Shown: positions 33,508-64,000, numbered from the stretch's first letter. The stretch is DNA of 64,000 nucleotides from Candidatus Eiseniibacteriota bacterium (GCA_043810925.1 JBDRNT010000069.1:34352-98351); one strand, 5' to 3'. Program-made: numbers and translations. Notes: generated by a model from the sequence alone, not told the origin.

Positions 33508-33526
33508 CTCATCTTCCTCCGGTCAC

Positions 33527-47682: not shown

Positions 47683-47735
47683 GTCAGACTCCCATGAGGT
47701 GGGTGGGTGAATTCCCTTGGGGCCCTCCGTGGTTG

Positions 47736-47764
47736 AATATAGGACAGAAATGAAATCAAGTCAA
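47736..47764 (-). promoter_or_regulatory. Sigma70-like promoter (TTGACT-17-TATATT) upstream of thiC, with a ~50-nt leader and no recognisable THI-box.
   Basis: The minus strand reads TTGACTtgatttcatttctgtccTATATT. The ribosome-binding site GGGAG sits 6 nt before the ATG. Confidence 0.35.
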
Positions 47765-47808
47765 CTGTAAGCCCGGATTATTCACGAACCTCCTGGCGAG
47801 GTGTCGCT

Positions 47809-49509: not shown

Positions 49510-52500
49510 CTAGAACGTGGCACTCAAAGAGGCCTTGACATTGTGGATCGTCGGGATTCCGCTCGTTTTGCGTCCGGTGTATTCAAAGGAAACCGACGTG
49601 TACCTGCCGTGGCGGAGATTGACCCTCGAATTCCAGGTGAACGAATCCCGCACCGGGTAGAGGGTCGCACTGGAGTATTCCGAACGGATGACCCTCCTGA
49701 GACTGCAGCCCGCATCACAGCGAAGGGCCCCGCTGAAGACGGTGATACCGGGGGAGGCGTTGACCTGCATAAAGGCTGATGTGGGTTCGGACCGCTCCTC
49801 ATTGAGTAGTTCCAGCCGCACTTGACTCCGCACGGCCGACACGATATTCCGGTCAAGACTGAGATTGGTGCTCCAGGTGTCCCTCGTCGGTTCAACACTG
49901 CCGGACGTCATATCTATTGTCGATCTCGTCGCCGTCAACCTGCCGGCCAGGGTGACCCTCATCTTCTTAAAGGCGCTGCTCAGCAGCCGGGTCTGTAACT
50001 CCGTCGTCGTCTTGCTCTCTTTCCTCTCGATACACCTGTTGTCGCGAAACCTCGAACCCTTTGCGTTAAGTGTAAGCGTAAGACCTTTCCCGCGCCGGAA
50101 GACCAGCTCCTCGCTGACCGTCATCCTCCCGAAGACCATCTCGTCACTCCGAAGCAAGTGGGCGGGGTAAAGAAATGCAATCCGTTCCAATTCCTGTGTC
50201 GAACTCTCTCCCTCGATGTCGATCCCGGTCCTTGCCGAGACAGCTCTATCCAGCAGGACCTTACCCCTTCTGCCCAGTTCGAGCACCAGGTCCGCCTTGA
50301 CCCTTGTGACAGGCTCTTTCCCCTTCTCAGACCTCGACATCACGTACCCACCCGCACCCGGGACGTAGTTGCCGAGACTGTCATAGTCGCCGCCTCCGCT
50401 CACCTGTACCAGTTCGGCGTCATAGACAGTCGTGAGCGCATTGGACAATCTGTAGTCGATTGACATGGAGCTGACCGCCAGGACATCCCGGAGATCGAAG
50501 TGGAAGTCACCGCTGGTGATCCGTTGTCCGCCTGCGGCCGTCTCCCGGGTATACTCTATCCTGCGCTGTGTTACTCCTCCTCTTATCAGGAGTCTTCTCT
50601 GCCGCGCCGTCTCAAACTCCAGCCTCCCCTCGACCTCGGATGAGTATTTGTCCCACCCGGCCCCCCTGTCCCTGTCCTCGGAGCCCGCGGAAAAAGCGAG
50701 CGAGACCTGCCCTCCGGTCCCGGACAGTTCCACTTGCGAGGAGTAATCCGTCCGCCGGGTGGATGTACTGTCGACGAGCTTCGACTTCGTCTCATGGTTG
50801 CGGCCCAGCGTAAGCTGCAGGAACTTGACCGGTATCCTGACGGCGATCCCGTTCCTGTCGATACCCTTCTCACTTGCGACCGACGACATCCGGGCGGTCT
50901 GTGAACTTGCGGTAAGCCCGAGACGCCTGTCTCCCAGTTCGAGCCCGGCCTTCCGCCTGAGCGACCGGCCCGAACTCGTTTCCATCGTGCCGATTTCAAA
51001 CGACGATGCAACCATATCATTCAGCTTATAGTCGAGACCGATCTCGTTCGCGTCCTCAAAACCGTCCTCTGCATCCTGCGCCCAGACCTCCAGGAAGTCC
51101 GGTCTTCTGAGTCTGTCAAACCCGATGTAGGTCTTCCCCACAGACCGTTTCTTCGCGCTCAGGCCGAGTGAGCCCACACTCCGTCCCCCAAGATCCGGAA
51201 GGTCCGATCTGCCCTGGACGGCCACGGTATAGGCCCTCCCCTCCTCTTCCTCCCAGGTTCCCGCCTCGGTCTTCGTATGTCCCTTTGACTGCGCCACCTC
51301 CGACGTCAACTCAAGCCACTCAGCCGGCCGGGCCGACGCACCCACATGAAAGACCCTGGCGCCAAGAGGCCGGCCAGCACGCACCTTGTCCAGGTATGCA
51401 CCGGTACCGGTATAGACGTAGACATAGACCGCCCATATCTCGGAGTAGATGTAGCTGTAGGTTCCCTCCCCCTCACCGACGAGTGTGAAGGTGACGTCGT
51501 AATCACCAAGACCTTCACCGACATATTCGTAGTAAGCAACCGTGTCGCTTTCGATGCGGATGTAGGAGCCGCGACCCATCCCGGCAAACCTACCGCCATC
51601 GACCCACTCGCGGGCGCCGTCGGTTCCGCTCGCAAGCAGTTCAGCCCCGGCACCTGCTTGCTCCTCAGGCTGGTTCGCACCGGTCTCGCTTACGAAGTTG
51701 ACCGCGACGGACGCCCGGTCTCCGATATCAAGACTCGACCGGCCGAAGTAGAACTGCCTGTTGCCGTCACGATCGGGGGACTCGTAGTCCACCACGATTC
51801 GTGCACCGTCTCTTACCAGATGTCTGGGGTTAAAGCAGATTTCTCCCGATACGTAGTCGATCGTGTAGTCTGCGTTGTCCCCACGCTTCAGCGGTTTGCC
51901 GTCGAGCCAGACGGACTCACTCCCCCTGACTATGTCTGTCTTCTCGCCATCCGCACGCTGGACAACATAGGGGCCCGTTATGCCCTCTCTGCCTCTGATC
52001 ACCACGGACTCGTAAGCGCTTCTTGAAGTGGCCCCGGACAGAGCCACACCCTTTGAACCATGTGAAGCATCCGCAAAAAAGCCGGTCATGCTTCTCCTGA
52101 ACCGGAGCAACTCCCCCGGAGATTCGTCTATTTCGAGGTCGCCGACCCTGGCATAGGCCCCGGAGGAGCGGACCTCCATGAAGACCCTGTCGAGATCTCT
52201 GAGTTTGCTGGTCGAGGTGCTACGGCTCAGCGACATGTCCTTGTCGGTCAGCACACCTTTGACATCAACCCCCTCACCTATCTTCCCGCCGATCGAGAGA
52301 TTCAGTGACTGGTTCATGCTGAAGTCGTTGAGCGTTCCGGTCTCCACGCTTACGGTCTTGGAACCGGACGCCCTGAGGTCATAACCCTTTTCCTTCTTTG
52401 CCGGCCGGATCTCCGCCCGCCGCGCGCCGAGACCGGGACCCGGAGCTTCATCGATTACCCTCAGGCTGTAGTCGGTCTTGAGCGGAAACGGGAAAACGGA

Positions 52501-52860
52501 GTACTTGATACGAACACATTCCTCAAGCGTGAGGCTGTCCGGGATAAGGACGATGCCCCGGGCATAATCCATCCGGTAGTCGGTTCCCCTTACCAGCATC
52601 CTAGCACCTGTCAATACGGTGTCGCTCGAGGCAATAATCAACCGGCGCGACAGATGGATCGCACCCGCACCCAGATCATCACCGCAGCGCACTTCCTCAC
52701 GCTGACAGGATACGCTGACTCCCTCAGCGCGGATCCCCCCGGCAGAGGCCGAAAGCGCCACGGCAAGCACCACCCCGAGAACACTACTGCGTGGATGTCT
52801 CAATCCTGAATACCTCGATCGACATACTTCCGGGATCGGCCACACAGACGACACCGTCAT
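49510..52860 (-). CDS. Very large (about 1,100 aa) beta-rich envelope protein ending in Phe; TamB/AsmA-like or a giant OM barrel. Function unknown.
   Basis: The long ORF (up to 52944) is strongly beta-strand-biased with alternating hydrophobic residues and ends in an OMP-like ...SLSATF. The start is uncertain (ATG at 52860, or GTG near 52773 just before the hydrophobic segment VLGVVLAVALSASAGG). It abuts the Omp85 gene with no spacer. Confidence 0.4.
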   Translation of the reverse strand: MTVSSVWPIPEVCRSRYSGLRHPRSSVLGVVLAVALSASAGGIRAEGVSVSCQREEVRCGDDLGAGAIHLSRRLIIASSDTVLTGARMLVRGTDYRMDYARGIVLIPDSLTLEECVRIKYSVFPFPLKTDYSLRVIDEAPGPGLGARRAEIRPAKKEKGYDLRASGSKTVSVETGTLNDFSMNQSLNLSIGGKIGEGVDVKGVLTDKDMSLSRSTSTSKLRDLDRVFMEVRSSGAYARVGDLEIDESPGELLRFRRSMTGFFADASHGSKGVALSGATSRSAYESVVIRGREGITGPYVVQRADGEKTDIVRGSESVWLDGKPLKRGDNADYTIDYVSGEICFNPRHLVRDGARIVVDYESPDRDGNRQFYFGRSSLDIGDRASVAVNFVSETGANQPEEQAGAGAELLASGTDGAREWVDGGRFAGMGRGSYIRIESDTVAYYEYVGEGLGDYDVTFTLVGEGEGTYSYIYSEIWAVYVYVYTGTGAYLDKVRAGRPLGARVFHVGASARPAEWLELTSEVAQSKGHTKTEAGTWEEEEGRAYTVAVQGRSDLPDLGGRSVGSLGLSAKKRSVGKTYIGFDRLRRPDFLEVWAQDAEDGFEDANEIGLDYKLNDMVASSFEIGTMETSSGRSLRRKAGLELGDRRLGLTASSQTARMSSVASEKGIDRNGIAVRIPVKFLQLTLGRNHETKSKLVDSTSTRRTDYSSQVELSGTGGQVSLAFSAGSEDRDRGAGWDKYSSEVEGRLEFETARQRRLLIRGGVTQRRIEYTRETAAGGQRITSGDFHFDLRDVLAVSSMSIDYRLSNALTTVYDAELVQVSGGGDYDSLGNYVPGAGGYVMSRSEKGKEPVTRVKADLVLELGRRGKVLLDRAVSARTGIDIEGESSTQELERIAFLYPAHLLRSDEMVFGRMTVSEELVFRRGKGLTLTLNAKGSRFRDNRCIERKESKTTTELQTRLLSSAFKKMRVTLAGRLTATRSTIDMTSGSVEPTRDTWSTNLSLDRNIVSAVRSQVRLELLNEERSEPTSAFMQVNASPGITVFSGALRCDAGCSLRRVIRSEYSSATLYPVRDSFTWNSRVNLRHGRYTSVSFEYTGRKTSGIPTIHNVKASLSATF

Positions 52861-53707
52861 CCCGGCAAGCGATGAATGCGGGCATCTCGAGCAAGCCCTC
52901 ACCGAATGAGCTGATGAACCCGCCGTCGGCAGAGAACACGGCAATCACGGCGCGCTCTGAATCCGATACCAGCACGTACCGGTCAAGATATGACGCGAGC
53001 CCGAACGGGCTCTGGAAATCGAAACCGACGAGCGCTTTGCGGGGTTTTCCAAAGGGGCTCAGCATCAGCACCTGCTCGGAGAATGCCTCGGTCACAAACA
53101 CGTTTCCGAGTTTCCCGGTAAGGCAATCCACCGGGTATGTACCACCATCACCGCTTGAGACCACAGCCTCAATCGGCTCGCTATCCCCCGATAGATCCAC
53201 AATGCGGATCGTACCCGCAATGCCCATGGCAGCGTAGATCTGCTCCGGCTTCCCCAGACCGAGCCCCGTAAGACCTTCCCCGACCTCCCTTGCCGACACA
53301 AACTCCCCCCAGCGGTCATAGACCAGGATCGATCCGGCGGTCTTCTCAGAAACGTAAACGCCCGCAGCGTTACCGGTCTCGATGTCTATCAGCTGGCAGT
53401 CACTGAACTCATCCGGACATCGCGCAAAGAGAGTGATACCATCAAGCGAATCCGGTAGCACAAAGATCCTCGAGTTATCCGAATCAATCACATAGAGTTC
53501 GCCGAACAATCCGAAGTCCAGGCCGAGTGGGGCGAACGCAAAACCGCTTCCGGACTCCTCGCATGGAATGGACTTCAGGTGTCGTGTCGAGATCTCACTG
53601 GATCCGCCGCCGGCGGGCTCCGAGCATGAAGCGAGGCCGGCAGCCCCGATACACGCCACCGCTGCCAGCAGTGATACACGTCTCATTATCTGTAGAGGTA
53701 ACATCAA
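52784..53707 (-). CDS. NHL-repeat (six-bladed beta-propeller) lipoprotein.
   Basis: Lipobox LASCS after the signal peptide. Repeated ...GxVxVxDxxNxRIxV-type blades. Confidence 0.6.
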   Translation of the reverse strand: MMLPLQIMRRVSLLAAVACIGAAGLASCSEPAGGGSSEISTRHLKSIPCEESGSGFAFAPLGLDFGLFGELYVIDSDNSRIFVLPDSLDGITLFARCPDEFSDCQLIDIETGNAAGVYVSEKTAGSILVYDRWGEFVSAREVGEGLTGLGLGKPEQIYAAMGIAGTIRIVDLSGDSEPIEAVVSSGDGGTYPVDCLTGKLGNVFVTEAFSEQVLMLSPFGKPRKALVGFDFQSPFGLASYLDRYVLVSDSERAVIAVFSADGGFISSFGEGLLEMPAFIACRDDGVVCVADPGSMSIEVFRIETSTQ

Positions 53708-54390
53708 AATGATGTGGAAAGGTAGAACCTGTAACTGTCCTGCGCCCTCTTTTCAACCCTCAAACTGGGATATGAGGACCGCTCGCCACGGTCTGCGAGT
53801 CTGAAGGTAAGATAGATGTCTATCATGCTGACCACCCGGTTTAAGACGGCGAACCCCGTGGTCAATACGGCGTGTCTGTACGATCCGCGGCTCAGGGTAC
53901 GCGTTTTTGCGAACTCGTCCCGCTTCTCCGCACTCTCCCACTCCCACGCGGAGGTCCCGAAATAACCATTCGCGTCGAAATAGGCCAGCTGATCCTCTTT
54001 GTCATCCGGGTACAGATAACGTGCTTCACGCATTACGTCTATATTGTAATCCTCATTGGAGCCGTAGTAGGCCAGGGCGATTGCGTAGTCATCGGCGATA
54101 TCACCCCCGACGCCCGCAAACAGCCTTGCCATTTCCTTGTACTTGTCCTTCCTCATGCCACCCTGGATCCGGTAACCGGCAAACGCTGTCCAGACCCCTG
54201 CTTCGGCTACATACATCATCCGCGCTCTGCCATGGTTACCGAGATAGTGCTGGCCCGCACCGGGCAAAACGAGAGAATACAACAGAGCCTTACGGAGTGA
54301 CCTGTCCCCACCGCCATCATCACAGTAGCCGGCTGCCACACACCCCAGCAGGGTTACCGCAACCACACAGAACTTAAGTGTATATCTCAT
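53704..54390 (-). CDS. Secreted hypothetical protein, paralog A. Shares a conserved S.VLPG.GQ.Y.G motif with the next gene.
   Basis: Signal peptide. Motifs LLYSLVLPGAGQHYLG and RVVSMIDIYL. C-terminal ...YLSTSF. Confidence 0.5.
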   Translation of the reverse strand: MRYTLKFCVVAVTLLGCVAAGYCDDGGGDRSLRKALLYSLVLPGAGQHYLGNHGRARMMYVAEAGVWTAFAGYRIQGGMRKDKYKEMARLFAGVGGDIADDYAIALAYYGSNEDYNIDVMREARYLYPDDKEDQLAYFDANGYFGTSAWEWESAEKRDEFAKTRTLSRGSYRHAVLTTGFAVLNRVVSMIDIYLTFRLADRGERSSYPSLRVEKRAQDSYRFYLSTSF

Positions 54391-54393
54391 GTA

Positions 54394-55311
54394 TCAGAAC
54401 CTCATCTTCAGACCGACTTTGACATTCGGGTTGCTGCCCAGCCTGGCCTTGAAGGTCAGACGCGGGTTCGTGCCGACACCGGCAAGATCCCGGTTCCTGA
54501 ACTTGGCCATGATCGCCGCGTCGACCATGCTGACAACTCTGCCTATTACCATCACCCATGCATAGCGATCGGCCTTGCCATAGAAATCATCCGCTTCCGC
54601 CCGCATGCCCTGATACTGTGTCCTGTTAGAAGAAGTACTGGGAATTCCCGCGGGCAACGTACCGTAGGGATCCCAGTCCACCCAGAGCTCCTCGGGGAAC
54701 TGCACATCACCTGTACTCCAGTCATCCCACCCAAACACATATCTGTCCTCTGCACCTATCTGTTCGTAGAAGGCCCCACTGCCTTGATCTGACAGCGGGA
54801 ACACCACATGTATCTCCTCCCAGCATCTCAAACTGTCGTAGATCCCGGGATCGGTACAAAAGCCGAAGTCACCGTAGCCACTGTGGACTGCGATCGTGTC
54901 GCGCACGTACCCGGTGAAGCGCTGCGTGCTGTAGTGGTCTTCGGCCCAGGCTTCGTACTCGCCCTTCTTGTCGTCCCCCTTGCCTGTGTTGTTGAAATAT
55001 CTCCACATGGAAAAGAGATCAGCAGCAGCCATCACTCCTCCGCTCGCATAGCCCCTTCTCCCACCCACATAGGCCTGTCCAAGCCCCGGGAGAACCGCGG
55101 ACAGCAGCATGGCTTTTGCCACCGACTTGCGGTGCAGCACGACACTCCCGCCGACCTCTACAGGCGCATCCTGTCCACCTTCATCGGTGATATTGCCGAT
55201 ACTGGCCCTGGCCTTTACATCAAGGTCATCATCCATGCCGCAGACATTGGAGAGAGTTACAAACGTCAGCAGGACGAACCCCGCTACCAAGATGCTGAAC
55301 CGGTGCGCCAT
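54394..55311 (-). CDS. Secreted hypothetical protein, paralog B.
   Basis: Signal peptide. Motifs MLLSAVLPGLGQAYVG and RVVSMVDAAI. C-terminal ...GLKMRF. Confidence 0.5.
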   Translation of the reverse strand: MAHRFSILVAGFVLLTFVTLSNVCGMDDDLDVKARASIGNITDEGGQDAPVEVGGSVVLHRKSVAKAMLLSAVLPGLGQAYVGGRRGYASGGVMAAADLFSMWRYFNNTGKGDDKKGEYEAWAEDHYSTQRFTGYVRDTIAVHSGYGDFGFCTDPGIYDSLRCWEEIHVVFPLSDQGSGAFYEQIGAEDRYVFGWDDWSTGDVQFPEELWVDWDPYGTLPAGIPSTSSNRTQYQGMRAEADDFYGKADRYAWVMVIGRVVSMVDAAIMAKFRNRDLAGVGTNPRLTFKARLGSNPNVKVGLKMRF

Positions 55312-55321
55312 GCCCTACCTC

Positions 55322-58300
55322 CTACCTCTTTACGGCCAATTTGAAGAACTCACTGGTCCGGGCACCGTTGCCCTCAAGACTCAGCCTGCAGACATAAAGC
55401 CCGCTTCCCAGGTCGCTGATATCCACGTCCGGGACTGTCACCTTCGGTACCTGCGATTCGGCATTGTATCTTACGGTCTTGACTATAGTACCTGTTACAT
55501 CGAAGACCTCTATCGTCACCGCACCACCGGTGTCGGTCTCAAACCGGAAACTGACTTCATTCCCGCCGCCCTCGCTGCTGTACGCAACACCGGCCGGGTT
55601 GGGAAATGCGTGGAAACTGCCTTTGACAAGCAACCTGCTGCCCGGCTGCGGTGCATCGGGCATCTGATCGATTGGATAGACACAGTTCCTGCTTGAGTCG
55701 AAATACGCCGTCTTCCATGGGGCCGGATTCGTATCGGTCTGTCCCGGATGCAAAAATGCATAGACTGAACCGTCTCCCCCACCGGTCACGAGCTCAAGCC
55801 TGCCGTCCCCGTCGAGATCGCCCAACGCTGCCGCCGAGCATCCTCCCCCGAGTGTTACCGGAAAACCGCTCATCCTCTTACCGCCCGCTTCCCACGCGGT
55901 GATACACTCAAACAGCGTGCCCTGTATTACATCTATTGCCCCATCACCATCGAGATCGCTCGCAATCGGCGATGGAACCGATATCGTCGTGTCCGCCGGA
56001 TAGTAGTCCTCGTCCCACTCGGGCAGGGCGCAGCCATAGCGTGAATTAGGCCACCCGTCGGCAGGGCTACCGCTTCGAAGCACCACCCAGCTCTTGTGCT
56101 CGTCATCGTTCAGGATCATCTCCAGGTAGCCGTCCCCGTTGACGTCTGCGATAGCCGGAGGGGAGACCACACCCCTGCATACTCTCCTGCCCCACCCCGG
56201 TAACTCCCGTCCCTCACCATCCACGACCCACATCCATCCGTTGTCGCCCACGACTATGATCTCATATGCAGGCTCCCCGGCCCTGTCAAGATCTGCGGCC
56301 GCCAGATAGACATGTCCGGGATCCAGGTCACAGGAGAACGGGTAGGTGGCAATTACCCGGCGGGCTGAGTAGGAATACACTACGATCTCACCCGTTCTGT
56401 AGTATACAATCTCCGCGCCGATCGAGTCGGGAAGGAGATCACATACAACCGGCCGGCTGAATCCACCGTCATCACCTCCGTCCAGGCGAAGGTCTATCAC
56501 CAGGTTGCCGGGCAGACCGCCGAGGACATACAACGCAGAGTCTGTTGCGACGATTGCCTCATCGTGCCCGTCCCCACCAAGATCGTATGCAACCACCACA
56601 CCGTTCACGTGACCGTTGACCGTGTAAAACGCTCCACGCCAGTCGGCACCGAAGAAATAGGGCGAGCCACCGGCCGTGAAGGCATAGAGATGATCGGTCT
56701 CGTCACTGAACACCACCTCATCGACCCCGTCACCGTCAAGATCCGCTGCGACCAGTTCCGTGGGATGCGACCCATGAGGCCTTTTCGGCCAACCCGGCAA
56801 GCTCACCGGACTGCCGGCTTCGTCGAGCTCGTAGGCGTCTATTCGAGATCGCTCCCAGACCACCCCCGCAGTGTCCCAGTATGCCCGCTTAAGAGCAGAC
56901 CTTATCTCGGCCCTGCCGTTACCATCCAGGTCCGAAACGAGAAGTGAAGGCACACCAAAACGCATAGAGTCTCCCAAGGCGTACGGGAAGCCGGGTCTAC
57001 TCCAACTATACGAAACACGGAGATCCATGGAAAGACCGGAATCGCTTATCTGGTCGATGACCACATGTGAATGACAGCCGGTATTACTGCGTGTGTTGGG
57101 ATAGGTGTCATCGGCCATCCTGTCGTTATTACCGCGTCTGAAGGGGTCGTCGGGTCCGCCGAGAAAATAGAACGAATTGAAGTCACCCAGATCCGGGATA
57201 CCGTCCGCCTCTTTGAGCGTCAGACCGCGCCGCTCGGGAAACGCATTGATGAGATCAAATGGACCGAGCCAGTCGATCCAGGCAGCGTCCGCGTGCCAGA
57301 TCAGAAGTCCGCTCCCCGGAAGCACGAAGTCGTACTCGTAGTTCAGGTTATCGTTTCCGTCAGCCGGCCCGATTATCACGCCCGTTGAATCTTCGCTTGG
57401 ATCGGTGAGCACGTAGGCCGAGTCGTTTCCATCAAGGTCGGCCTGCCTGTTCTCTATGAGGTAGCACTCGTTTGAGTTTATCGGTACTGCAAGCACGTCC
57501 GTGTTGGGAAACTCACCCTGGAGCTCGGTGGCATCAAGAGTGAACGATCCCCCGCCGACAACCGTATCGGCAACGGCCCAGCCGAGCTCGATCTTGCTCC
57601 ATGCGGATATCGAAGCCGGCAGGATGCCGGATACATAGTATGCCTCCCCGGTTCGCTCATCCTCCACCACCACCCCTACACCCGAGCCGAAGTCCATCAG
57701 GTCCCAGTAGCCGACAACACTCATGCCCGAGTAGGTGTCATACAGATCGGGCAGCCCCAGCTGATGGCCCACCTCATGCGCGAGCACACCGTTGAGGCCG
57801 TTAAAGAAGTCATCCTGGCTGGTCGTCTCCGGGACGACGCTACCGTCGACGATGAAGTGGGTACCGCCTTCCACCTCGATGCTGTCGCCGATCGATATGA
57901 AGAATGAGGGAATGTCATAAGGCGTATCGCCGTATATGTCGTTCTGCCAGTCCGAGCCGGCATGGAAGATCACCACGGCATCGAACTCGCGGAAGTCAAG
58001 ATCAGGGTCCTGGTCGGCAACGGTGATCGCATCACGGAAGAAAAGATCGAGACCGTCAAGCGACCACGTGTAGACCCCGCCACTGGGATTATAGTCGCCG
58101 ATATCGGGAAGTACGTAGGCGGCGTCGTTTGCGAGTGGAAAGACCTCCGACTCGATCTTAAGACTTCCATAGGACATGGCGTCGTAGTAGTGGGCAAGTG
58201 CTTCCATGTGCTTGGAGAAGTACTTGCGGTCATGAGGTGACGGGTCGATCGGAATCTCTTCCCGTTTGTCTCTGAGATCGAATCTTCCGCCGGCACCGGT

Positions 58301-58600
58301 GATCCCCGAAGGGTCCGGGACGCGTGCGAACTCCACCCGGATCGCACAGATCCGAAGCACATCCTGTATCTCCTGGGCCGCCGTCATGGGGCCCTTCCTC
58401 TGCCTTGAGGTCAGGAGTTTCCTGGTTGACGGCATATCCTTAATCGGGGCGTTTATCCACCGCTTGAGCCGCTTGTCCATCAAACTCTGGAACTCGGCGT
58501 TCTCACCGGGCGGTCTGACCTTGACGACCCCGGCACACACCAGTTCCCCAGCTGCCACCACCCACACCAGAATCATTATCAATGTCAGAGTTGTCTTCAC
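55322..58600 (-). CDS. Secreted multi-domain protein: M6 (InhA-like) metalloprotease, FG-GAP/VCBS beta-propeller repeats and a T9SS C-terminal sorting domain.
   Basis: Signal peptide. HEXXH motif VLAHEVGHQLGLPDLYD. Multiple DLDGDG.DE/FG-GAP-like repeats. C-terminal AFPNPAG...VFDVTGTIV...GLYVCRL, a CTD-like tail. Confidence 0.7.
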   Translation of the reverse strand: MKTTLTLIMILVWVVAAGELVCAGVVKVRPPGENAEFQSLMDKRLKRWINAPIKDMPSTRKLLTSRQRKGPMTAAQEIQDVLRICAIRVEFARVPDPSGITGAGGRFDLRDKREEIPIDPSPHDRKYFSKHMEALAHYYDAMSYGSLKIESEVFPLANDAAYVLPDIGDYNPSGGVYTWSLDGLDLFFRDAITVADQDPDLDFREFDAVVIFHAGSDWQNDIYGDTPYDIPSFFISIGDSIEVEGGTHFIVDGSVVPETTSQDDFFNGLNGVLAHEVGHQLGLPDLYDTYSGMSVVGYWDLMDFGSGVGVVVEDERTGEAYYVSGILPASISAWSKIELGWAVADTVVGGGSFTLDATELQGEFPNTDVLAVPINSNECYLIENRQADLDGNDSAYVLTDPSEDSTGVIIGPADGNDNLNYEYDFVLPGSGLLIWHADAAWIDWLGPFDLINAFPERRGLTLKEADGIPDLGDFNSFYFLGGPDDPFRRGNNDRMADDTYPNTRSNTGCHSHVVIDQISDSGLSMDLRVSYSWSRPGFPYALGDSMRFGVPSLLVSDLDGNGRAEIRSALKRAYWDTAGVVWERSRIDAYELDEAGSPVSLPGWPKRPHGSHPTELVAADLDGDGVDEVVFSDETDHLYAFTAGGSPYFFGADWRGAFYTVNGHVNGVVVAYDLGGDGHDEAIVATDSALYVLGGLPGNLVIDLRLDGGDDGGFSRPVVCDLLPDSIGAEIVYYRTGEIVVYSYSARRVIATYPFSCDLDPGHVYLAAADLDRAGEPAYEIIVVGDNGWMWVVDGEGRELPGWGRRVCRGVVSPPAIADVNGDGYLEMILNDDEHKSWVVLRSGSPADGWPNSRYGCALPEWDEDYYPADTTISVPSPIASDLDGDGAIDVIQGTLFECITAWEAGGKRMSGFPVTLGGGCSAAALGDLDGDGRLELVTGGGDGSVYAFLHPGQTDTNPAPWKTAYFDSSRNCVYPIDQMPDAPQPGSRLLVKGSFHAFPNPAGVAYSSEGGGNEVSFRFETDTGGAVTIEVFDVTGTIVKTVRYNAESQVPKVTVPDVDISDLGSGLYVCRLSLEGNGARTSEFFKLAVKR

Positions 58601-58612
58601 AAAGAACGCTCC

Positions 58613-59626
58613 TTAGAGTCTGTAGTTTAAAGAGAACTTGTTCTCCCTTCCCAGCTCCTCGGCTTTGGGTACGCTCGCGTAATCGAAGTCCAGCCCGCCG
58701 CCGACGGGCACGCTGATCCCGAAACCGTAAGTGAAGCCTTCGATCTTGCCATCGTGGTCATAGATATAACCCAACCGGGGCGCCACGAAACCCGCTATCA
58801 TCAGTTCCGCCCCACCGTTTAAGGTGGCATCTCTTCTGATCGCGCTCGTCTTGAATCCATCGAAAATCTCATTCAGTCCGATCAGGGTCTTGGCAAACTC
58901 CGTCGATATCAACAGCGAATAGCCTTCACCATAGAACGGCTTGAAGGCTATACCGGTCCGCAGGGTCCTGGGCAGCGGCGCCGACTCGTCCTTGCTTACG
59001 AAACTCATGTCGGGACCGAGATTCTGAAGCGCAGCACCATAGGACAGCCGGTCATTGATTCTCCCGAGGAACCCGAAGTCCGCCGCGAAACTCCAGCCCG
59101 CACCCTCGACACCACCCGTCTCAACCGTCGCAGGGGCAAGGTACACGCGGGATATCTTGAGGCCCACGCCAAACGCATTCCTGCTGTTTAGCTTGAAGGC
59201 ATAGTATCCGCCGAATGCGAATTCATAGCTAGTGTGCTCCTGCACCGGGATGCCTTCCCTGGTCGTCTCCCACCACTTACCGTAAGTAAGGTAGATCGCA
59301 CTGAATCCGAGCGTTCCGATCTCAGGGATGGCGTGGGACACATTGATCGATTCGAAATAGACATCGTCCGCGAGCATAGGGATCAGCTGACTGTGCGTCA
59401 TCGACATACGGGTGCCGTCCAAGAACCCGAGCCCACCCGGGTTCCAGTACATAGCAGTCGCATCATCGGCAATCGCCACGAATGACTGTCCCAATCCCCA
59501 AGCACGTGCCGACGGTGAGATTATCAGTGATGGGGCAGCTGCCTCCCCAACCGCCAGCACTTCAGAAGAAGCAAGCAGAGCCAACATCGACACCAGAAAC
59601 AACACCCTACGCATCATTCTGTCCAA
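58613..59626 (-). CDS. PorV/PorQ-like outer-membrane protein (FadL-like beta-barrel associated with T9SS).
   Basis: Signal peptide, then ARAWGLGQSFVAIADDATAMYWNPGGLGF, the N-terminal motif I associate with PorV/PorQ/PorP-type T9SS barrels. Positioned immediately downstream of the PorU-like gene, as in porU-porV operons. Confidence 0.55.
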   Translation of the reverse strand: MDRMMRRVLFLVSMLALLASSEVLAVGEAAAPSLIISPSARAWGLGQSFVAIADDATAMYWNPGGLGFLDGTRMSMTHSQLIPMLADDVYFESINVSHAIPEIGTLGFSAIYLTYGKWWETTREGIPVQEHTSYEFAFGGYYAFKLNSRNAFGVGLKISRVYLAPATVETGGVEGAGWSFAADFGFLGRINDRLSYGAALQNLGPDMSFVSKDESAPLPRTLRTGIAFKPFYGEGYSLLISTEFAKTLIGLNEIFDGFKTSAIRRDATLNGGAELMIAGFVAPRLGYIYDHDGKIEGFTYGFGISVPVGGGLDFDYASVPKAEELGRENKFSLNYRL

Positions 59627-59632
59627 CCTCCA

Positions 59633-62600
59633 TCATCGTATCAGTACAAGCACTATTGTGTCCCGGGTGCTGAACCCGGGCTCAGACGGAGCAGTAGCCT
59701 CTACCACGGCCAGATAGGCTCCGTTTGCGACGGCATCACCCGCCATATCGGTGCCGTCCCATCTTAGCTGGAAGTGAGAATGCGGACCCGAAACGATACC
59801 TGCCCATATCTCCCTTCCCGACACCGTGTATATCTTCGCGCTGATTTCAACCTCAATGCTGTTATCGTTCTCGTATTCCCAGATGATATAGCAGTCCTCG
59901 TGTGCAGGATTGGGGTACGCATAGACCGTATTGGCCGCACCGCTCACCGGAGAGCCGACATAGATGCTGTAGTCATCCGTGGTCAGGTTGTTGAGATTGT
60001 CAAATGCGGAGACACTCAACTTGTGTTCACCCACTGCGAGCGGCGGAACGACGAACGCGGCCTCAGACACTGTGAAATCGCCATCCACAGCGTGAACACT
60101 CTCCGCAAGGTTCACCCTCTCGACATCGTCGTATGCTATCGACACAGAGGGAATGAATTCCGACTTACCCTTGATCGCCACACCACTTTCATCCGAGAGC
60201 CGGATGTCCACTCTTGCACCTACGGACAGGGTATCAACAGGCGCTACGGTCTCACCGTTATAGATAAGCTCTATCTCGGGACCTTCATCATCATCTGAGA
60301 AACCCTCTCCGCTCACCACCAGGCTGTCAAGCATGCCCGAAGCGGAGACAATCCCGTCCGTGGCAAAACACTTCACCGTAGCCGCACTACCCTGACGGGC
60401 ACTGGCGGACATGAAGAACCTCGAATCGAACACGCCGCTCTGAACGTCCGACCTGCCCCTGAACACCTCGAGACCGGGAAGAGCGTAATCGAAAAAGACC
60501 AGGGGATTGCAGCTCTGGTAACCGGTCGTATCCTCGGCCTCACGGACACAGATGTTCGCCTGGACACCGGACCACCCTACGATGCCGCCCTGGTCATGGA
60601 TGCTCGCCTGGAATTCATAAACGCTTTTTCTTGAGAGCGTTTCAGGCACCGTAGTCTCAAAAACGACATCAAGAAGCGGTGTAGCCAGCTCCAGCATAGG
60701 ATCGCCGAAGAGCGCATAGACTTCATTGTTCATCCAGTATGTCCTCCGGTCCGACGCGGACGCAATTGTCAGCCACTTCGCCAGGGCTACCGCATCTGCG
60801 ATCGGAACAGTGGGGTCCTTATCTCCGGTGGGAAATAACTGCTGGATAACGTTGAGATTCATTATCTGATTCGGCAGCGGAAAGGCCAGGTGTGTAGATG
60901 CAAGTGATCCGATGGTCCCGCCTCCGGGACGCCGGAGCAGGTTCTCTGCAACCGAAGATGACTGGGGCTCGTCGAATTTGCTGACATTACAGCTTGCCGC
61001 AATCAGGAAGGTCTCCCGGCGGCCCGTCTCGACGAGATCGACCGAGGCGGGGTTAAAGACCTCTTCCTGGGTCCACCTGAACTGGTCCCCGTGACCCACG
61101 AAATTGGTGATCAGGGCACCCCGGTTCAGATGTTTGACAAAATCGGCCCTTGCTTTGGGTTTAACCCCGCCGGTATCCATCGGGTATTCGGTCAGATATA
61201 TCTTTACATGGTCAAACACACGCGGGTAGGCCTCGTCACTCAACTCCTCGACGTTCCCGACATGCGGGCTATTCTGCTCACAGCCTTGGTTCACGTGGTC
61301 ATCGTCGGCTACGAGGATCACCCTGTTCTGCCACAGCCCACACTCGGGATTCGATGCGTAATTCAATTGCTTCGCAACCAGGAGCTCCGCCTCCTCCGGG
61401 GATGCGGCAGGAAGCCGTGAGATCCCGACCGTCGGGTAGTCGGCAATGCTGTCGTTGCGGACCGGCGCAAGGTAGGCAAACCAGTCATCGGTGTTGTACG
61501 GGTTTCCAAACGGCGGCAGATACCTGCGTTCATACGATGGAACATAATTCGGATAGGGGGCATTCTGTATGTAACTCTTGTAATCCCAGGTGGCATCGCC
61601 GAGAAGCAGTACCCATGACAGCGAACCGCTCTCATACCTCCACCTTAAGAAATCCCTTATCGCGGTCACGTCGGGAACACCCCAGCCGAATTCATCGAAG
61701 ATCTGCTCAGTGGTCACCACTTCACCATCATGGAAATCAGAGATCGTTGTCGCGGCATCAAGCAGGTCTTCATGCGTGACCACACAATAGGGTGCACCGG
61801 GTCCATTGCGGATGTCGGCGATCGCGGCCTGACTCATTGCGGCAGGCTTTCGGAGCGCACCTGGTGCGACGACCGCATAGCGCCGTGGCATCCCCTTGCT
61901 GATGGTATCACGCACCGTGAACGCGTATGAAGTAAAGCCCTCGCCGGTCGTGTCCTCGGCGCCCAAGAGCTCCCGTATATCGAACTGGTCGGTCACATCG
62001 AAGACATAGACCGAAGGTGAAGTGAACCCGCCTATAGCATATTCCACAGTGCAGGTGGAATCCGGAGCGGGAAAGAAAATCCGGTTTCCCACAGCAGTGA
62101 ACTTCCTCCAGTAGTAAAACTCCAGCCACGCCACATAGAGCTGGTCGCAAACACTCTCTTCTTCATAAGGCGGAAGCAGGTCGGAGGGAGCTTCCATTCT
62201 CAGCGATTGGGTTTGCGTGGCCGTTAGCCGCGTGGTCTCTGCCCTGACGTCTACGACTCTGAGGTTCGACGATGAGGCCCGCCAGGTCGTATCCGCTATC
62301 GCCGGTCGACCGTTGAGCTCAAGGATCAGCCTGTAGAAAGCGTTTGCACACCCGCTGCCTGCCTCAAATGAGAACCAGTCGGCGATACGAGCTTTGACGA
62401 CCGCCTTCCTGTCGGTATCCGGGAACGGCGTATCCAGGGTGAAGAAGGTAGGACTGTCGATCCTGAGATGCCGCCAGTACCAGCCGTCATCCGCACGGAC
62501 ACCGAAGTTGACGAATACGTCCTTTTCCATGTGAACGCGTTCGTAAAACGACTCCGGCACGTAGGCAGAGCAGCCGTCGCATCCGGGCATCATGACAGTC

Positions 62601-63661
62601 TCCATCCGGCCCGGCTCTTCACTGAAGGTCCCGCCCCAGGTCAGCCAGTAGCAGTTGGAGGTCGAGAAGAAACTCTTGTAGTAAACGTCATTCGCCCTGT
62701 CCTTGTCGTAGAGGTCGGCCCAGTCACGCATACCCAGACCGTAGAAGAGAATGCTGTCGGCGCTACCGAAACTGCCGTCGCCACCATCAACGATTTTAAC
62801 GGGAACGGATCTCATCCAGACCGGATTCCTGTCGGCGAGGCTCTCACTAAGCGGAAGCCCACCTCCGTTGTAGAGCCGGATCGTACCCGGATCGATGCCA
62901 CCGATCGCGGCGCCGATGCCGGCAAGGTCCCGGCCCGTTACACAGTAGACGCCGGTCGACTCAACCCGGATCTTTATCCACATCGAGTTCGGCGCATCGG
63001 TGAAGTAATCCCCCTCTTGGAGCCTCCGCACAGGTCTCCGCCGCCACATCCTGCCCTGTTCGTAGTTGAGGATGCCCGTGCGGTATGCGGCTTCGCTTCT
63101 GTCGTCGAGGGATGTGACCGCCGGCGGCGCGGACCTCTGCGGTGCTCGCTCGTCACCGAAGTCGATGGTGACCTTAAGACGAGTGTAGACCCTTACCACA
63201 CCCGCCTGTCTGTCATAGACAAGCGGAGCAATGCGAAGCGCTATTACACGCTGGTCCCTGAAGTAACCGTCCGCCATGATCTCGGCCACCCGATCAGGTA
63301 TATCCGCCATCTCGTCCCCCGGCCCATCCGCCAAGTGTGAGATAGCATAATGCTCTATAGTATAAGACGTTACATCGCTTACATGATACGTTACATTAGC
63401 GTCGACGGGAACTGCTACAAGGTAAGCCTTTGCCGGTGCGGAGAAGCCCGCGCTCTCGTCACACACGGAAACAAAGCCGGGGACCCTGACACCGGACCAC
63501 TGTCCCTCATCACCAACGACTTCTTCGATACGGCTGATTTCAAACAGGAGCTCAAGGTGCGAGTCACCGGTACTCACTATGGCCGGCGAGCTCAAGAGCT
63601 GACCCGGCGGGCTCGCCACCAGGAGCAGCCACCCGACCCAGAATGCGAGTTTAGTTTTCAA
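59633..63661 (-). CDS. PorU-like C25-family (gingipain-type) cysteine peptidase with a T9SS CTD; candidate T9SS sortase.
   Basis: 1,342 aa with a signal peptide. C25 core with GHG...(His) and ...AASCNVSKFD (Cys) catalytic-dyad regions. C-terminal VYAYPNPA...IYTVSGREI...GAYLAVVE, a CTD-like tail. Followed by the PorV-like gene. Confidence 0.6.
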   Translation of the reverse strand: MKTKLAFWVGWLLLVASPPGQLLSSPAIVSTGDSHLELLFEISRIEEVVGDEGQWSGVRVPGFVSVCDESAGFSAPAKAYLVAVPVDANVTYHVSDVTSYTIEHYAISHLADGPGDEMADIPDRVAEIMADGYFRDQRVIALRIAPLVYDRQAGVVRVYTRLKVTIDFGDERAPQRSAPPAVTSLDDRSEAAYRTGILNYEQGRMWRRRPVRRLQEGDYFTDAPNSMWIKIRVESTGVYCVTGRDLAGIGAAIGGIDPGTIRLYNGGGLPLSESLADRNPVWMRSVPVKIVDGGDGSFGSADSILFYGLGMRDWADLYDKDRANDVYYKSFFSTSNCYWLTWGGTFSEEPGRMETVMMPGCDGCSAYVPESFYERVHMEKDVFVNFGVRADDGWYWRHLRIDSPTFFTLDTPFPDTDRKAVVKARIADWFSFEAGSGCANAFYRLILELNGRPAIADTTWRASSSNLRVVDVRAETTRLTATQTQSLRMEAPSDLLPPYEEESVCDQLYVAWLEFYYWRKFTAVGNRIFFPAPDSTCTVEYAIGGFTSPSVYVFDVTDQFDIRELLGAEDTTGEGFTSYAFTVRDTISKGMPRRYAVVAPGALRKPAAMSQAAIADIRNGPGAPYCVVTHEDLLDAATTISDFHDGEVVTTEQIFDEFGWGVPDVTAIRDFLRWRYESGSLSWVLLLGDATWDYKSYIQNAPYPNYVPSYERRYLPPFGNPYNTDDWFAYLAPVRNDSIADYPTVGISRLPAASPEEAELLVAKQLNYASNPECGLWQNRVILVADDDHVNQGCEQNSPHVGNVEELSDEAYPRVFDHVKIYLTEYPMDTGGVKPKARADFVKHLNRGALITNFVGHGDQFRWTQEEVFNPASVDLVETGRRETFLIAASCNVSKFDEPQSSSVAENLLRRPGGGTIGSLASTHLAFPLPNQIMNLNVIQQLFPTGDKDPTVPIADAVALAKWLTIASASDRRTYWMNNEVYALFGDPMLELATPLLDVVFETTVPETLSRKSVYEFQASIHDQGGIVGWSGVQANICVREAEDTTGYQSCNPLVFFDYALPGLEVFRGRSDVQSGVFDSRFFMSASARQGSAATVKCFATDGIVSASGMLDSLVVSGEGFSDDDEGPEIELIYNGETVAPVDTLSVGARVDIRLSDESGVAIKGKSEFIPSVSIAYDDVERVNLAESVHAVDGDFTVSEAAFVVPPLAVGEHKLSVSAFDNLNNLTTDDYSIYVGSPVSGAANTVYAYPNPAHEDCYIIWEYENDNSIEVEISAKIYTVSGREIWAGIVSGPHSHFQLRWDGTDMAGDAVANGAYLAVVEATAPSEPGFSTRDTIVLVLIR

Positions 63662-64000
63662 TTCCGGCCTCCGGCTACCAGTACCGCGACAACCACCAGC
63701 CCTACGGAGAATGCCGACATAACGATCTCCCCCGCACGGCCCCGTCCTCCCACCGCCCTGCCGTGCTTTATCAATCCTGAGTGGGTGGGAAAGACCTTGC
63801 TCCGCTCAGGGATGATACCGCATTTCCAGATCAGGTTCTCGAAATCCGGGGCGACGGCCCCGAGTGCTCCCAGGAAAACAGGCGAGAAGCCTGAAACCAG
63901 CAGGATTCCCCCCAGCAAAGCCAGTGTCAGTACAGCATCCACGCGAAAATCCTCGAAGTCGATATGAGGAACCGCGTCAAGAGGGATATGCGACACGAAA
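63658..64000 (-). CDS. Hypothetical membrane protein (possibly YdjM/DUF457-like), possibly truncated at the window edge.
   Basis: ORF reaching the window end, with hydrophobic segments. Its stop overlaps the PorU-like start by 4 nt. Confidence 0.3.
   Translation of the reverse strand, partial: FVSHIPLDAVPHIDFEDFRVDAVLTLALLGGILLVSGFSPVFLGALGAVAPDFENLIWKCGIIPERSKVFPTHSGLIKHGRAVGGRGRAGEIVMSAFSVGLVVVAVLVAGGRN

Follow-up and report, generated by a model that had tools for sequence, protein, structure and literature searches.

The window analysed here, a 64,000-nt stretch of DNA from a Candidatus Eisenbacteria MAG, contains two genes for M6-type peptidases. ORF A (55322-58600, minus strand) starts with GTG and encodes a protein of 1092 aa in which an M6-like metallopeptidase is followed by an eight-bladed FG-GAP beta-propeller and a predicted T9SS C-terminal sorting domain (CTD). 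The smaller ORF B (5038-6828, plus strand) encodes an M6 (InhA-type) peptidase of 596 aa with a CTD-like tail. The ORF list places both genes exactly where the initial annotation had put them. The most informative fact, missed by that annotation, is that ORF A lies inside a porU-porV operon.

The operon is tightly packed on the minus strand, with ORF A as its third gene, in the order porU, porV, ORF A, two DUF5683 genes, an NHL protein, a SprA-related giant barrel and an Omp85 protein; the nearest relative has the same gene order. The gaps among the nine co-directional genes are -4, 6, 12, 10, 3, -4 and 0 nt, and a further junction, at the giant barrel, measures about -35 nt, the start of the barrel being only approximate. 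PorU (59633-63661) is the T9SS sortase, a C25 peptidase with its own CTD (NF033707, 526 bits against a cut-off of 420; PF01364, 247.6 bits). The PorV-family outer-membrane protein (58613-59626), encoded 12 nt upstream of ORF A, matches NF033709 with 182 bits (cut-off 90) as well as the Pfam PorV model. Downstream of ORF A, the products of the two DUF5683-like genes (54394-55311 and 53704-54390; PF18935, 30.3 bits, above the cut-off, and 21.4 bits, below it) both begin with a signal-peptide-like stretch and end in Phe. The NHL-repeat protein (52784-53707) carries a lipobox-like LASC and its gene overlaps the preceding one by 4 nt. The giant beta-barrel (49510-52818, approximate start) is about 1100 aa long and ends in ...SLSATF; its AF2 model (pLDDT 82.8) contains about 36-42 long strands, its top Foldseek matches are SprA (8gl6_A, 7e-13; 6h3i_A, 4e-11), with low TM-scores, and a local TIGR04189 match is found in 25 of 28 members of its family. 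The last gene of the cluster (47809-49509) encodes a BamA/TamA-like Omp85/POTRA protein (PF07244 and PF01103; TIGR03303, 94.6 bits, below the cut-off), which is co-conserved at many loci. The neighbours of ORF A are all predicted to be envelope or T9SS-type proteins. In addition to PorU and the PorV-family protein, both above their cut-offs, and the SprA-related barrel, we looked for PorK/L/M/N and a full-length SprA, none of which was seen within the 64-kb window.

Domain layout and active site of ORF A

The AF2 model of the whole ORF A protein has a pLDDT of 89.9 and a pTM of 0.86. Residues 1-23 (MKTTLTLIMILVWVVAAGELVCA; 58532-58600, minus strand as for all segments of the protein) form a predicted Sec signal peptide, with a basic N-terminus and then a hydrophobic helix that corresponds to helix 2-17 of the model. 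InhA is a zymogen, and by likeness to it the segment of low conservation that follows (aa 24-79; 58364-58531; pLDDT 59-79; 13 % identity with intact-site orthologs) is possibly a pro-segment. The M6/InhA-like catalytic domain spans aa 80-340 (57581-58363) and contains the zinc-binding/catalytic motif HEVGHQLGLPDLY (aa 275-287; 57740-57778), with H275, E276, H279 and D285. It is followed by a beta-rich middle domain (aa 341-535; 56996-57580) that has conserved ENR and EADG motifs and partly aligns with InhA past the catalytic domain (VEG-like). The propeller (aa 536-960; 55721-56995) is built from eight FG-GAP-like repeats of the D-x-D/N-G-D-G type at aa 557, 620, 673, 721, 770, 819, 882 and 928, and both FG-GAP_3 (PF13517, 41.7 against 26.9) and FG-GAP (PF01839, 38.5 against 22.1) score above their gathering cut-offs, in agreement with the FG-GAP/VCBS-type repeats described initially. 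The protein ends in a T9SS type-A-like sorting domain (aa 995-1092; 55325-55618), predicted to be a seven-strand beta-sandwich. This architecture is itself that of a large conserved family, with at least 1172 same-length homologs among the matches listed, one branch of which, with a dead active site, is already curated as NF052323. In the literature, we found no experiment and no paper on the family.

The zinc site HEVGHQLGLPD (aa 275-285) is a complete HEXXHXXGXXD motif, with His, Glu, His and an Asp third ligand; of the 120 homologs nearest to ORF A, about 110 retain it. Asp is the third zinc ligand in the thuringilysins (PMC12237041), and in the pairwise alignment with InhA (thuringilysin, MEROPS M6, PDB 4yu5/4yu6, from Bacillus) HEVGHQLGLPDLYDT..WDLMDFGS of ORF A stands against HAFGHDLGLPDEYDT..WSLMSGGS of 4yu5. 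The Met-turn candidate of ORF A, M302, is invariant across an alignment of 92 sequences. Peptidase_M6 (PF05547) recognises the protein with 40.1 bits (cut-off 22), aligning only profile positions 222-275, and TIGR03296 gives 82.7 bits against a cut-off of 110.8. The family profile matches InhA in a search of solved structures, and the predicted fold of the catalytic domain is InhA-like. With its zinc site and Met-turn complete, ORF A is therefore probably a working endopeptidase in the Eisenbacteria lineage. The likeness to InhA comprises HExxHxLGLPDxYDT with its Asp ligand, the W-x-L-M Met-turn and part of the domain after the catalytic one. InhA, however, is secreted by Gram-positive bacteria as a virulence protease, carries VEG and MAM domains and lacks both propeller and T9SS CTD, whereas ORF A is encoded in a secretion-machinery operon.

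Sorting tails and the smaller M6 gene

The initial annotation had assigned T9SS sorting tails to both M6 proteins. This assignment misses the curated cut-offs, just so for ORF A, which scores 22.0 with TIGR04183 (cut-off 23) and 19.8 with PF18962 (cut-off 27); the tail of ORF B (aa ~496-596; 6523-6825, plus strand) has no match to either model at E <= 0.01 and only sub-threshold FlgD_ig and PorZ-CTD matches. Both tails carry a PNP motif ('AFPNPAG' in ORF A, 'AYPNPFR' in ORF B), and ORF A terminates in '...GLYVCRL...FFKLAVKR'. Four independent lines nevertheless support the view that they are T9SS CTDs. The ORF A family profile matches solved CTDs, namely those of PorU (6za2, E 4e-6) and PorZ (5m11, E 5e-5) and also 8glj_D. 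Most ORF A orthologs pass TIGR04183. The AF2 model shows for ORF A a beta-sandwich with strands at aa 997-999, 1015-1021, 1027-1033, 1039-1046, 1053-1060, 1067-1077 and 1080-1090. Finally, a CTD HMM built solely from homologs and run against the window ORFs finds exactly three of them, always at the C-terminus: ORF A (3e-30), PorU (2e-9) and ORF B (3.6e-7). Conserved positions of the ORF A domain are P1000-N-P1002, G1067, Y1069 and K1087, the last in at least 90 % of sequences; a conserved Lys of T9SS CTDs contacts PorV (PMC10994853).

Alternatively, ORF A might have no connection with the T9SS, its C-terminal domain being a generic Ig-like/FlgD_ig fold without a sorting role and the protein a protease of the periplasm or associated with the outer membrane, with a part in outer-membrane biogenesis. 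The narrowly missed cut-offs, the FlgD_ig-type matches on the CTDs of the window and the Omp85 and large-barrel genes of the operon would suit this reading, which we consider highly improbable. The matches to solved T9SS CTDs, the orthologs above the TIGR04183 cut-off and the restriction of the CTD HMM to PorU and the two M6 proteins all speak against it, as do the PNP, GxY and terminal K motifs of ORF A and the canonical PorU sortase and PorV encoded immediately upstream.

ORF B has an intact zinc site as well (HEFCHLLGLPDLY, aa 264-276; 5827-5865, plus strand), in which HEFCHLLGLPD (aa 264-274) completes HEXXHXXGXXD, and a Met-turn, 'LCLMDLGA', at the matching place. It passes both Peptidase_M6 (104.6 bits) and TIGR03296 (153.1 bits, cut-off 110.8). 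The M6/InhA-type zinc sites proposed for the two proteins are confirmed. The two genes had further been described as duplicated, and the union of M6 and sorting tail as unusual; neither description holds. ORF A and ORF B are 29 % identical over about 214 aa, which points to old paralogs from separate, widely distributed families and not to a recent duplication. At least 550 same-length homologs of ORF B, annotated 'immune inhibitor A', are found among the matches listed, many of them with PF13860, PF13585 or PF18962 tails, and M6 peptidases are common in T9SS-bearing Bacteroidales (PMC4936053). ORF B shares with ORF A the M6 zinc site, the ENR and ADG motifs, the CTD-like tail and the host organism, but it has no propeller and, unlike ORF A, passes TIGR03296. 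The conserved context in its relatives, hldE/rfaE, ORF B, DUF3467 and a lipid A acyltransferase, contains no T9SS genes, and ORF B looks like an ordinary cargo-type gene.

Linkage to porV and loss of the active site among orthologs

Orthologs of ORF A were sampled at a minimum of 80 loci, located by sequence patterns drawn from the family itself, so that orthologs elsewhere in the genomes, or paralogs unlinked to porV, may be under-represented. The lineages represented are of FCB type and comprise Eisenbacteria, Zixibacteria, Fibrobacteraceae, Latescibacteria, Ignavibacteria, Chlorobi, Calditrichia, Marinimicrobia, Cloacimonetes, Rhodothermales, Balneolales and other Bacteroidota, and protein identity is just 24-38 %. 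Among the loci listed, the ortholog is immediately preceded by porV, in the same orientation, at 68 of the 70 informative ones (the exceptions are L036 and L056, the latter with porV downstream), a porU homolog is found upstream at 43 of 57 and a DUF5683 homolog downstream at 41 of 55. An independent check of one upstream gene identified a PorV-family protein with 240 bits. No upstream porU was detected at the remaining 14 of the 57 loci, and at the Marinimicrobia locus L030 the gene preceding porV is glyA; the tight pair is therefore porV and ORF A, not the whole operon. ORF A begins 12 nt downstream of porV, and its linkage to porV, conserved across phyla, argues for a T9SS-dedicated role over generic extracellular proteolysis; since the gene sits inside a porU-porV operon in many phyla, its product probably serves the secretion machinery as a dedicated partner. 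Gene linkage of this kind does not amount to proof of a physical complex.

In one large clade of orthologs the HExxH residues have been lost while fold, tail and porV linkage are retained. This clade, found in Ignavibacteria, Chlorobi, Rhodothermia/Balneolia, other Bacteroidota, Marinimicrobia and others, corresponds to NCBIfam NF052323, 'T9SS-dependent M6-like inactivated metalloprotease' (T9SSA_dep_M6i). Members resemble ORF A in overall length, in the succession of M6-like domain, middle domain, propeller and type A CTD, and in the genomic slot directly downstream of porV. The commonest residues at their first three catalytic positions are A, S and S, and the motif reads, for example, AASxGSxLGLPDLF. 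Dead-site orthologs in the porV slot score 817-1202 bits with NF052323 and intact-site orthologs 163-301 bits. NF052323 is also the best NCBIfam match of ORF A, with 272 bits against a cut-off of 600 and over aa 69-530 only, but the loss of catalytic residues that defines the family is absent, H275, E276, H279 and D285 all being present. In a neighbour-joining (NJ) tree the dead-site orthologs group together, with the intact-site proteins on the other side; the tree is midpoint-rooted, and we can only infer from it that the active state is the ancestral one. ORF A belongs to the intact-site branch, outside the coverage of NF052323, and is a sister group or ancestral-type relative of that family, not a member. 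Proteins of the intact-site branch are currently labelled 'M6 family metalloprotease-like', 'FG-GAP repeat' or 'T9SS sorting domain' protein.

Even against the dead orthologs, conservation of ORF A is highest in the M6 and middle domains (34 % and 31 % identity, compared with 17 % for the propeller). Only eight positions are specific to the intact group, among them H275, E276, H279 and Y287, and 53 are conserved in both groups, including D285, the Met-turn M302, ENR and EADG. Since the dead clade has kept fold, CTD and porV slot, the conserved core function appears to be structural or a matter of binding, with catalysis ancestral or additional.

ORF A might instead be an ordinary T9SS cargo, as the initial annotation had it. 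It would then be an extracellular or surface InhA-like protease for acquiring nutrients or degrading environmental proteins, with the propeller as a substrate- or surface-binding module and the porUV position serving only to ensure co-expression with the export machinery. This reading seems rather unlikely to us. A zinc site intact and conserved through several phyla would suit this role, as would a CTD of the type found in ORF B and PorU. M6 peptidases are moreover common secreted enzymes of T9SS organisms, and PMC11205867 includes many peptidases among T9SS cargo. Generic cargo, however, would not be expected to adjoin porV over phylum-level distances with the constancy seen at the loci listed, nor to preserve full length, CTD and linkage after the clade-wide loss of H, E and H, and ORF B, the ordinary M6 cargo of the same genome, has no such linkage.

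Dead-site orthologs show that a non-catalytic function suffices, and ORF A might be likened to PorZ (PG1604/PG93, PDB 5m11), a subunit of the T9SS attachment complex that likewise combines a surface beta-propeller with a T9SS CTD. PorZ keeps this CTD and works with PorU, PorV and PorQ (PMC8545088). By that analogy, ORF A would be an essentially non-catalytic attachment-complex adaptor with a relic or secondary zinc site; its propeller would bind the anchoring glycolipid (an A-LPS equivalent) and present it to the PorU sortase, and its retained CTD would dock on a PorV/PorQ-type barrel. We regard this reading as unlikely. The propeller and CTD layout and the operon shared with porU and porV are consistent with it; the CTD profile of the family matches the CTDs of PorZ and PorU, PorZ is at rank 5 in Foldseek (E 1e-9, 5m11 being matched weakly), and lectin- and polysaccharide lyase-related FG-GAP propellers occur among the profile matches. 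PorZ, however, lacks a protease-like domain and carries two 7-bladed propellers where ORF A has a single 8-repeat propeller, and the PorZ model NF052228 finds no match in ORF A. The strict retention of the catalytic residues in at least five lineages also stands against this reading, and the fact that the propeller is the least conserved domain, and the M6-like and middle domains the most, argues that the key function lies in the protease-like module. At most, a functional analogy with PorZ is possible, not homology.

A putative partner of PorU and PorV

Our preferred reading, which we hold with moderate confidence, is that ORF A reaches the cell surface through Sec and the T9SS and serves the PorU/PorV outer-membrane module as a dedicated partner, not as a free-standing nutritional cargo. 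It would cross the inner membrane by means of its signal peptide; PorV and the translocon would recognise its type-A-like CTD, and it would then reside at the cell surface with PorV and PorU. There, the InhA-like domain may work on proteins as they leave the T9SS, for instance in cargo maturation or the clearance of cleaved CTDs, and the 8-bladed propeller may serve as a binding platform for protein or glycan. A highly expressed 'default' cargo could also be selected into the porUV operon, which weakens the case for such a dedicated role.

More tentatively, FCB-type bacteria outside the classical Bacteroidia could possess a compact outer-membrane module of the T9SS in which the M6-propeller-CTD protein is a core and ancient subunit. 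The protein would take the place that PorZ has in the attachment complex, the window representing the ancestral active state. Besides the M6-propeller protein, such a module would contain PorU and PorV, the DUF5683 proteins, the NHL lipoprotein, the half-size SprA-related barrel and a dedicated Omp85. Its protease would first have processed substrates at the translocon exit and later have become a pseudoenzyme in Bacteroidota-side lineages. The barrel, half the usual size of SprA, bears on what a minimal T9SS translocon might be.

For annotation, the intact-site branch is at present missed by NF052323. To our knowledge, the T9SS attachment machinery has been studied almost entirely in Porphyromonas and Flavobacterium; for other FCB phyla, reviews go no further than stating that the system 'may also be present' (PMC11285876). 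A protein of about 1100 aa that remains beside porV in about a dozen lineages at phylum or class level is therefore a strong candidate for an accessory component that has so far escaped recognition. Its natural intact and dead versions provide a built-in experiment on which part of the function needs proteolysis, and both have cultivable carriers, for example Fibrobacter with the intact type and Ignavibacterium, Melioribacter or Rhodothermus with the dead one.

Architecture of ORF A and its place in a porU-porV operon

ORF A (positions 55322-58600, minus strand), the larger of two genes for M6-type proteins in the window, is a genuine open reading frame of 1092 aa with a GTG start. In Pfam searches it matches Peptidase_M6 with 40.1 bits (cut-off 22), the alignment covering profile positions 222-275 only, and it passes the thresholds of both FG-GAP_3 and FG-GAP. 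The zinc motif, HEVGHQLGLPDLY, is found at aa 275-287, and FG-GAP-like D-x-D/N-G-D-G repeats occur eight times with a spacing of 49-63 residues. As in ORF B, the smaller M6 gene, the N-terminal sequence appears to resemble a Sec signal peptide. The AlphaFold2 model, computed from an alignment of 92 sequences (mean pLDDT 89.9, pTM 0.86), starts with a helical signal peptide, followed by a segment of low conservation (aa 24-79), one domain of alpha/beta type (aa ~80-340) and one rich in beta-strands (aa ~341-535), the propeller (aa ~536-960) and a terminal beta-sandwich of seven strands (aa 995-1092).

The active site of ORF A can be read from a direct sequence alignment with InhA, which places HEVGHQLGLPDLYDT...YWDLMDFGS of ORF A opposite HAFGHDLGLPDEYDT...AWSLMSGGS. 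According to this alignment, ORF A possesses both zinc-binding histidines, the catalytic Glu, an Asp as third ligand and the Met of the Met-turn. The solved InhA sequence carries an Ala at the expected Glu position, presumably an inactivating mutation. The InhA domains are here called VEG, MAM and pro-peptide, in line with the Pfam names. An Asp also serves as the third ligand in thuringilysins (PMC12237041).

The C-terminal tail is recognized as a T9SS (type IX secretion system) sorting domain, or CTD, by two independent profiles but not by the curated models. Among solved structures, the ORF A family profile hits the CTDs of PorU (6za2), PorZ (5m11) and 8glj_D, and a CTD HMM, built from homologs alone with the window sequence left out, detects three ORFs and no others across the window, always at the C-terminus (ORF A at 3e-30, PorU at 2e-9 and ORF B at 3.6e-7). 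In contrast, ORF A narrowly misses the cut-offs of TIGR04183 (22.0 vs 23) and PF18962 (19.8 vs 27). With this reservation for the tail, the M6 zinc site, FG-GAP propeller and T9SS-type tail that the initial annotation had read from the sequence are confirmed by Pfam, the motifs, the AlphaFold2 model and the CTD matches. Residue K1087, within 'FFKLAVKR', is at least 90 % conserved. It is a candidate counterpart of the single conserved CTD lysine that touches PorV in translocon structures of F. johnsoniae (PMC10994853).

ORF A belongs to a minus-strand operon. The gene order starts with a small ORF without assignment upstream of porU, followed by porU itself (59633-63661; C25 peptidase, NF033707 526 bits, cut-off 420), a porV-family gene (58613-59626; NF033709 182 bits, cut-off 90) and, third among the named genes, ORF A. 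Two tandem DUF5683-like genes come next (53704-55311; 305 and 228 aa), then a gene for an NHL-repeat protein with a lipobox-like sequence, a gene for an unannotated protein of ~1100 aa (49510-~52818), two genes downstream of the DUF5683 pair, and finally one for a BamA/TamA-like Omp85/POTRA protein (47809-49509). The operon is called from the intergenic gaps, which from the small ORF through Omp85 measure -4, 6, 12, 10, 3, -4, about -35 (start uncertain) and 0 nt; a promoter/terminator consensus scan of positions 46500-64000 gave counts no higher than expected from shuffled sequence and is uninformative on transcription units. Both DUF5683-like proteins have signal-peptide-like N-termini, a common 'LPG.GQ.Y.G' motif and a C-terminal Phe (...LKMRF and ...LSTSF). 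A neighbouring protein is 100 % identical to one recorded from a Candidatus Eisenbacteria MAG, and the exact sequence of ORF A matched no record. NCBI treats Candidatus Eiseniibacteriota as a candidate phylum. It is usually placed near the FCB group. In the nearest database relative (GCA_025774845.1) the ORF A ortholog is 88 % identical and the gene order unchanged.

Linkage to porV and state of the active site

Homologs of ORF A number more than 1172 proteins, nearly all of 1000-1150 aa and with an identical domain set. Scanning one genome per species with sequence patterns derived from the family yielded at least 80 loci, a lower bound and not an exhaustive census, since the patterns came from the family itself. 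These loci span Eisenbacteria, Zixibacteria, Latescibacteria, Fibrobacteraceae, Ignavibacteria/Melioribacter, Chlorobi, Calditrichia, Marinimicrobia, Cloacimonetes, Gemmatimonadales, Rhodothermales, Balneolales and other Bacteroidota, and their orthologs are just 24-38 % identical to ORF A. When the retrieved loci were searched by tblastn with the neighbouring proteins of the window, 68 of the 70 listed loci with enough flank had a porV homolog immediately upstream, on the same strand. Among the loci listed, porU was found upstream of porV in 43 of 57 and DUF5683 downstream of the ORF A ortholog in 41 of 55. The ~1100-aa protein and Omp85 follow further downstream in many loci of Eisenbacteria, Zixibacteria and Fibrobacteraceae and in some others.

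Among the informative loci listed, only L036 and L056 have no porV directly upstream. The former (Eiseniibacteriota) encodes a protein with a dead site, lacks porV nearby and may represent a paralog; the latter (Gemmatimonadales) encodes an intact-site protein and has a porV-like match downstream. In L030, a divergent Marinimicrobia locus, the upstream gene belongs to the PorV family (240 bits, NCBIfam) and is preceded by glyA, so that porU is absent there. This locus (8596-17781) reads glyA, porV, an M6-like protein with a dead site, a TolB-like propeller protein of 1047 aa, an ORF of 310 aa without family match and BamD, with BamG further upstream. In about 12 dead-site loci the M6-like gene lies ~3-3.5 kb from the DUF5683 match, which suggests the same extra gene as in L030.

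An alignment of 81 orthologs divides the family by its active site. The window and the loci of Eisenbacteria, Zixibacteria, Fibrobacteraceae, Cloacimonetes and Gemmatimonadales retain an intact HExxHxxGxxD, whereas this motif is replaced, usually by AASxGSxLGLPDLF or ALMxGFxxGLPPLW, in Ignavibacteria, Melioribacter, Chlorobi, Balneolales, Rhodothermales, other Bacteroidota, Marinimicrobia, Latescibacteria and Calditrichia. Intermediate motifs exist as well (e.g., HQFGH...S in L013). Partly eroded motifs were noted in L011 (IMFGHQLGLPN), L013 (HQFGHYFGLPS, with Glu changed to Gln and Asp to Ser), L019, L022, L035, L036 and L058, and look like intermediates in active-site loss. The dead forms cluster together in a midpoint-rooted NJ tree, with intermediates basal to them: L011, L013, L019, L022 and L036 lie at the base of the dead-site clade and L058 beside the Marinimicrobia-type dead clade, while L035 was too short to be included. 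NF052323, the NCBIfam model 'T9SS-dependent M6-like inactivated metalloprotease' (cut-off 600), separates the groups likewise, dead-site orthologs scoring 817-1202 bits and intact-site orthologs, the protein of the window included, 163-301 bits.

The intact group is set apart by eight positions only (Q219, Q262, D263, H275, E276, H279, Y287 and V408); both groups retain D285, M302 of the Met-turn and the motifs ENR and EADG. Dead orthologs are 34 % identical to ORF A in the M6-like domain, 31 % in the middle domain and 17 % in the propeller, the first two being the best-conserved parts of the family. From this conservation and the persistence of dead sites we conclude that the family has a conserved function that is independent of catalysis and reliant on the protease-like fold. 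Catalysis would then be an added, probably ancestral property retained in the window. The initial annotation had taken ORF A for an ordinary cargo protease; the intact zinc site fits, but neither the conserved adjacency to porV nor the persisting dead versions are easily accommodated, and we regard this as rather unlikely.

ORF B, a giant barrel and a pilus cluster

ORF B (5038-6828, plus strand; 596 aa) is also a genuine open reading frame and a clear M6 peptidase (PF05547 104.6 bits; TIGR03296 153.1 vs a cut-off of 110.8), with HEFCHLLGLPDLY at aa 264-276 and sub-threshold FlgD_ig and PorZ-CTD matches at its C-terminus. The two M6 genes had been described as duplicated cargo in an unusual combination with the T9SS. 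Since ORF A and ORF B are only 29 % identical over ~214 residues, a recent duplication is ruled out. Nor is the pairing of M6 with a sorting tail unusual: homologs of ORF B exceed 550, measure ~580-600 aa, mostly bear the name 'immune inhibitor A' and in many cases end in FlgD_ig, CHU_C or Por_Secre_tail, and M6 peptidases are common in T9SS-bearing Bacteroidales too (PMC4936053). ORF B is most readily understood as an ordinary M6 peptidase that is secreted with the same kind of sorting tail.

Its surroundings are those of LPS biosynthesis, with hldE/rfaE-type heptose genes (3365-4973) on one flank, a DUF3467 gene (6854-7150) directly downstream and a lipid A acyltransferase-like gene (7147-8091) on the other flank, an arrangement (3365-8091) kept in relatives down to 40 % identity. 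As a negative control, ORF B-type proteins on large contigs lay within this same neighbourhood in three of three cases, and no T9SS genes adjoined them at these loci.

The ~1100-aa protein of the operon belongs to a family annotated just as 'hypothetical', without a Pfam domain, and ends in ...SLSATF. Its AlphaFold2 model (pLDDT 82.8) is composed almost entirely of long beta-strands (~36-42). The best Foldseek matches are structures of the T9SS translocon SprA (8gl6_A at 7e-13, 8gl8_A, 6h3i_A and 6h3j_A), ahead of SlpA, TonB-dependent transporters and LptD, at low TM-scores of 0.24-0.33. TIGR04189 (SprA) matches locally, over the most conserved segment of the family, in 25 of 28 members (28 of the 57 homologs having been examined with NCBIfam). 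A sequence-profile search of the PDB with the family gave no matches, SprA included, so that the tie to SprA comes from the fold search and this local match. SprA is a 36-strand barrel of ~2300 aa (PMC10994853), and the ~1100-aa protein may be a half-size SprA-related barrel with its own Omp85 behind. The barrel is co-conserved with the porU-porV-M6 cluster. The Omp85/POTRA gene abuts the barrel gene (0-nt gap), the two are co-conserved in many loci, and its product may be a dedicated insertase of the barrel.

Elsewhere in the window, a minus-strand type IV pilus cluster (18682-35230) encodes the PilQ secretin (18682-19989), a sigma-54 response regulator and histidine kinase (28031-31159), PilC (31171-32391), PilT (32401-33507) and PilB (33527-35230). 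An adjoining 1040-aa ORF (15563-18685) has no NCBIfam match at E <= 1e-25.

Relation to known families and proposed role

Among curated entities, NF052323 comes closest. ORF A scores below its cut-off and does not share its defining inactivation, and is thus a sister or ancestral-type relative rather than a member. ORF A is like M6 peptidases in motif and fold, yet falls under the TIGR03296 cut-off. Homology to PorZ was rejected (NF052228 is unmatched, the two proteins differ in their numbers of propellers and blades, and structural comparison scores weakly), and ORF A is not PorZ. NF052323 and the 'PorU2' and 'PorV2' models NF052324 and NF052325 have consecutive accessions, which suggests that they were curated together, possibly for a second sorting system; the window's own proteins score 526 bits as canonical PorU vs 103 as 'PorU2', and 182 as canonical PorV vs 32 as 'PorV2'.

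The dead branch is already known at the annotation level, as NF052323. The literature searched contained no paper on the ORF A family, its porV linkage, DUF5683 or the PorU2/PorV2 models, and nothing relevant on M6/InhA with PorU/PorV, on 'inactivated metalloprotease' or on PorZ outside Bacteroidota. Reviews of non-Bacteroidota FCB phyla state merely that T9SSs 'may also be present' (PMC11285876). The sources searched document neither the branch with an intact site, nor the linkage to porV across phyla, nor the implied transition to a pseudoenzyme.

A PorZ-like adaptor would share the propeller and CTD layout of ORF A and could be accommodated in the known PorU-PorV-PorZ-PorQ attachment complex (PMC8545088). 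However, neither homology nor specific fold similarity supports it, and the propeller varies most within the family, which makes such a role improbable. A role apart from the T9SS altogether strikes us as very remote. We lean towards the view that ORF A reaches the cell surface through the T9SS and is dedicated to the PorU/PorV module. The architecture, the intact active site, operon membership, the linkage across phyla and the division into intact and dead orthologs are direct observations, while export route, location, partners, activity and substrates are inferred. In the lineage of the window it would still be a zinc endopeptidase acting on proteins that leave the T9SS, plausible substrates being cargo in need of maturation or cleaved CTDs to be cleared, and its propeller would act as a binding platform.
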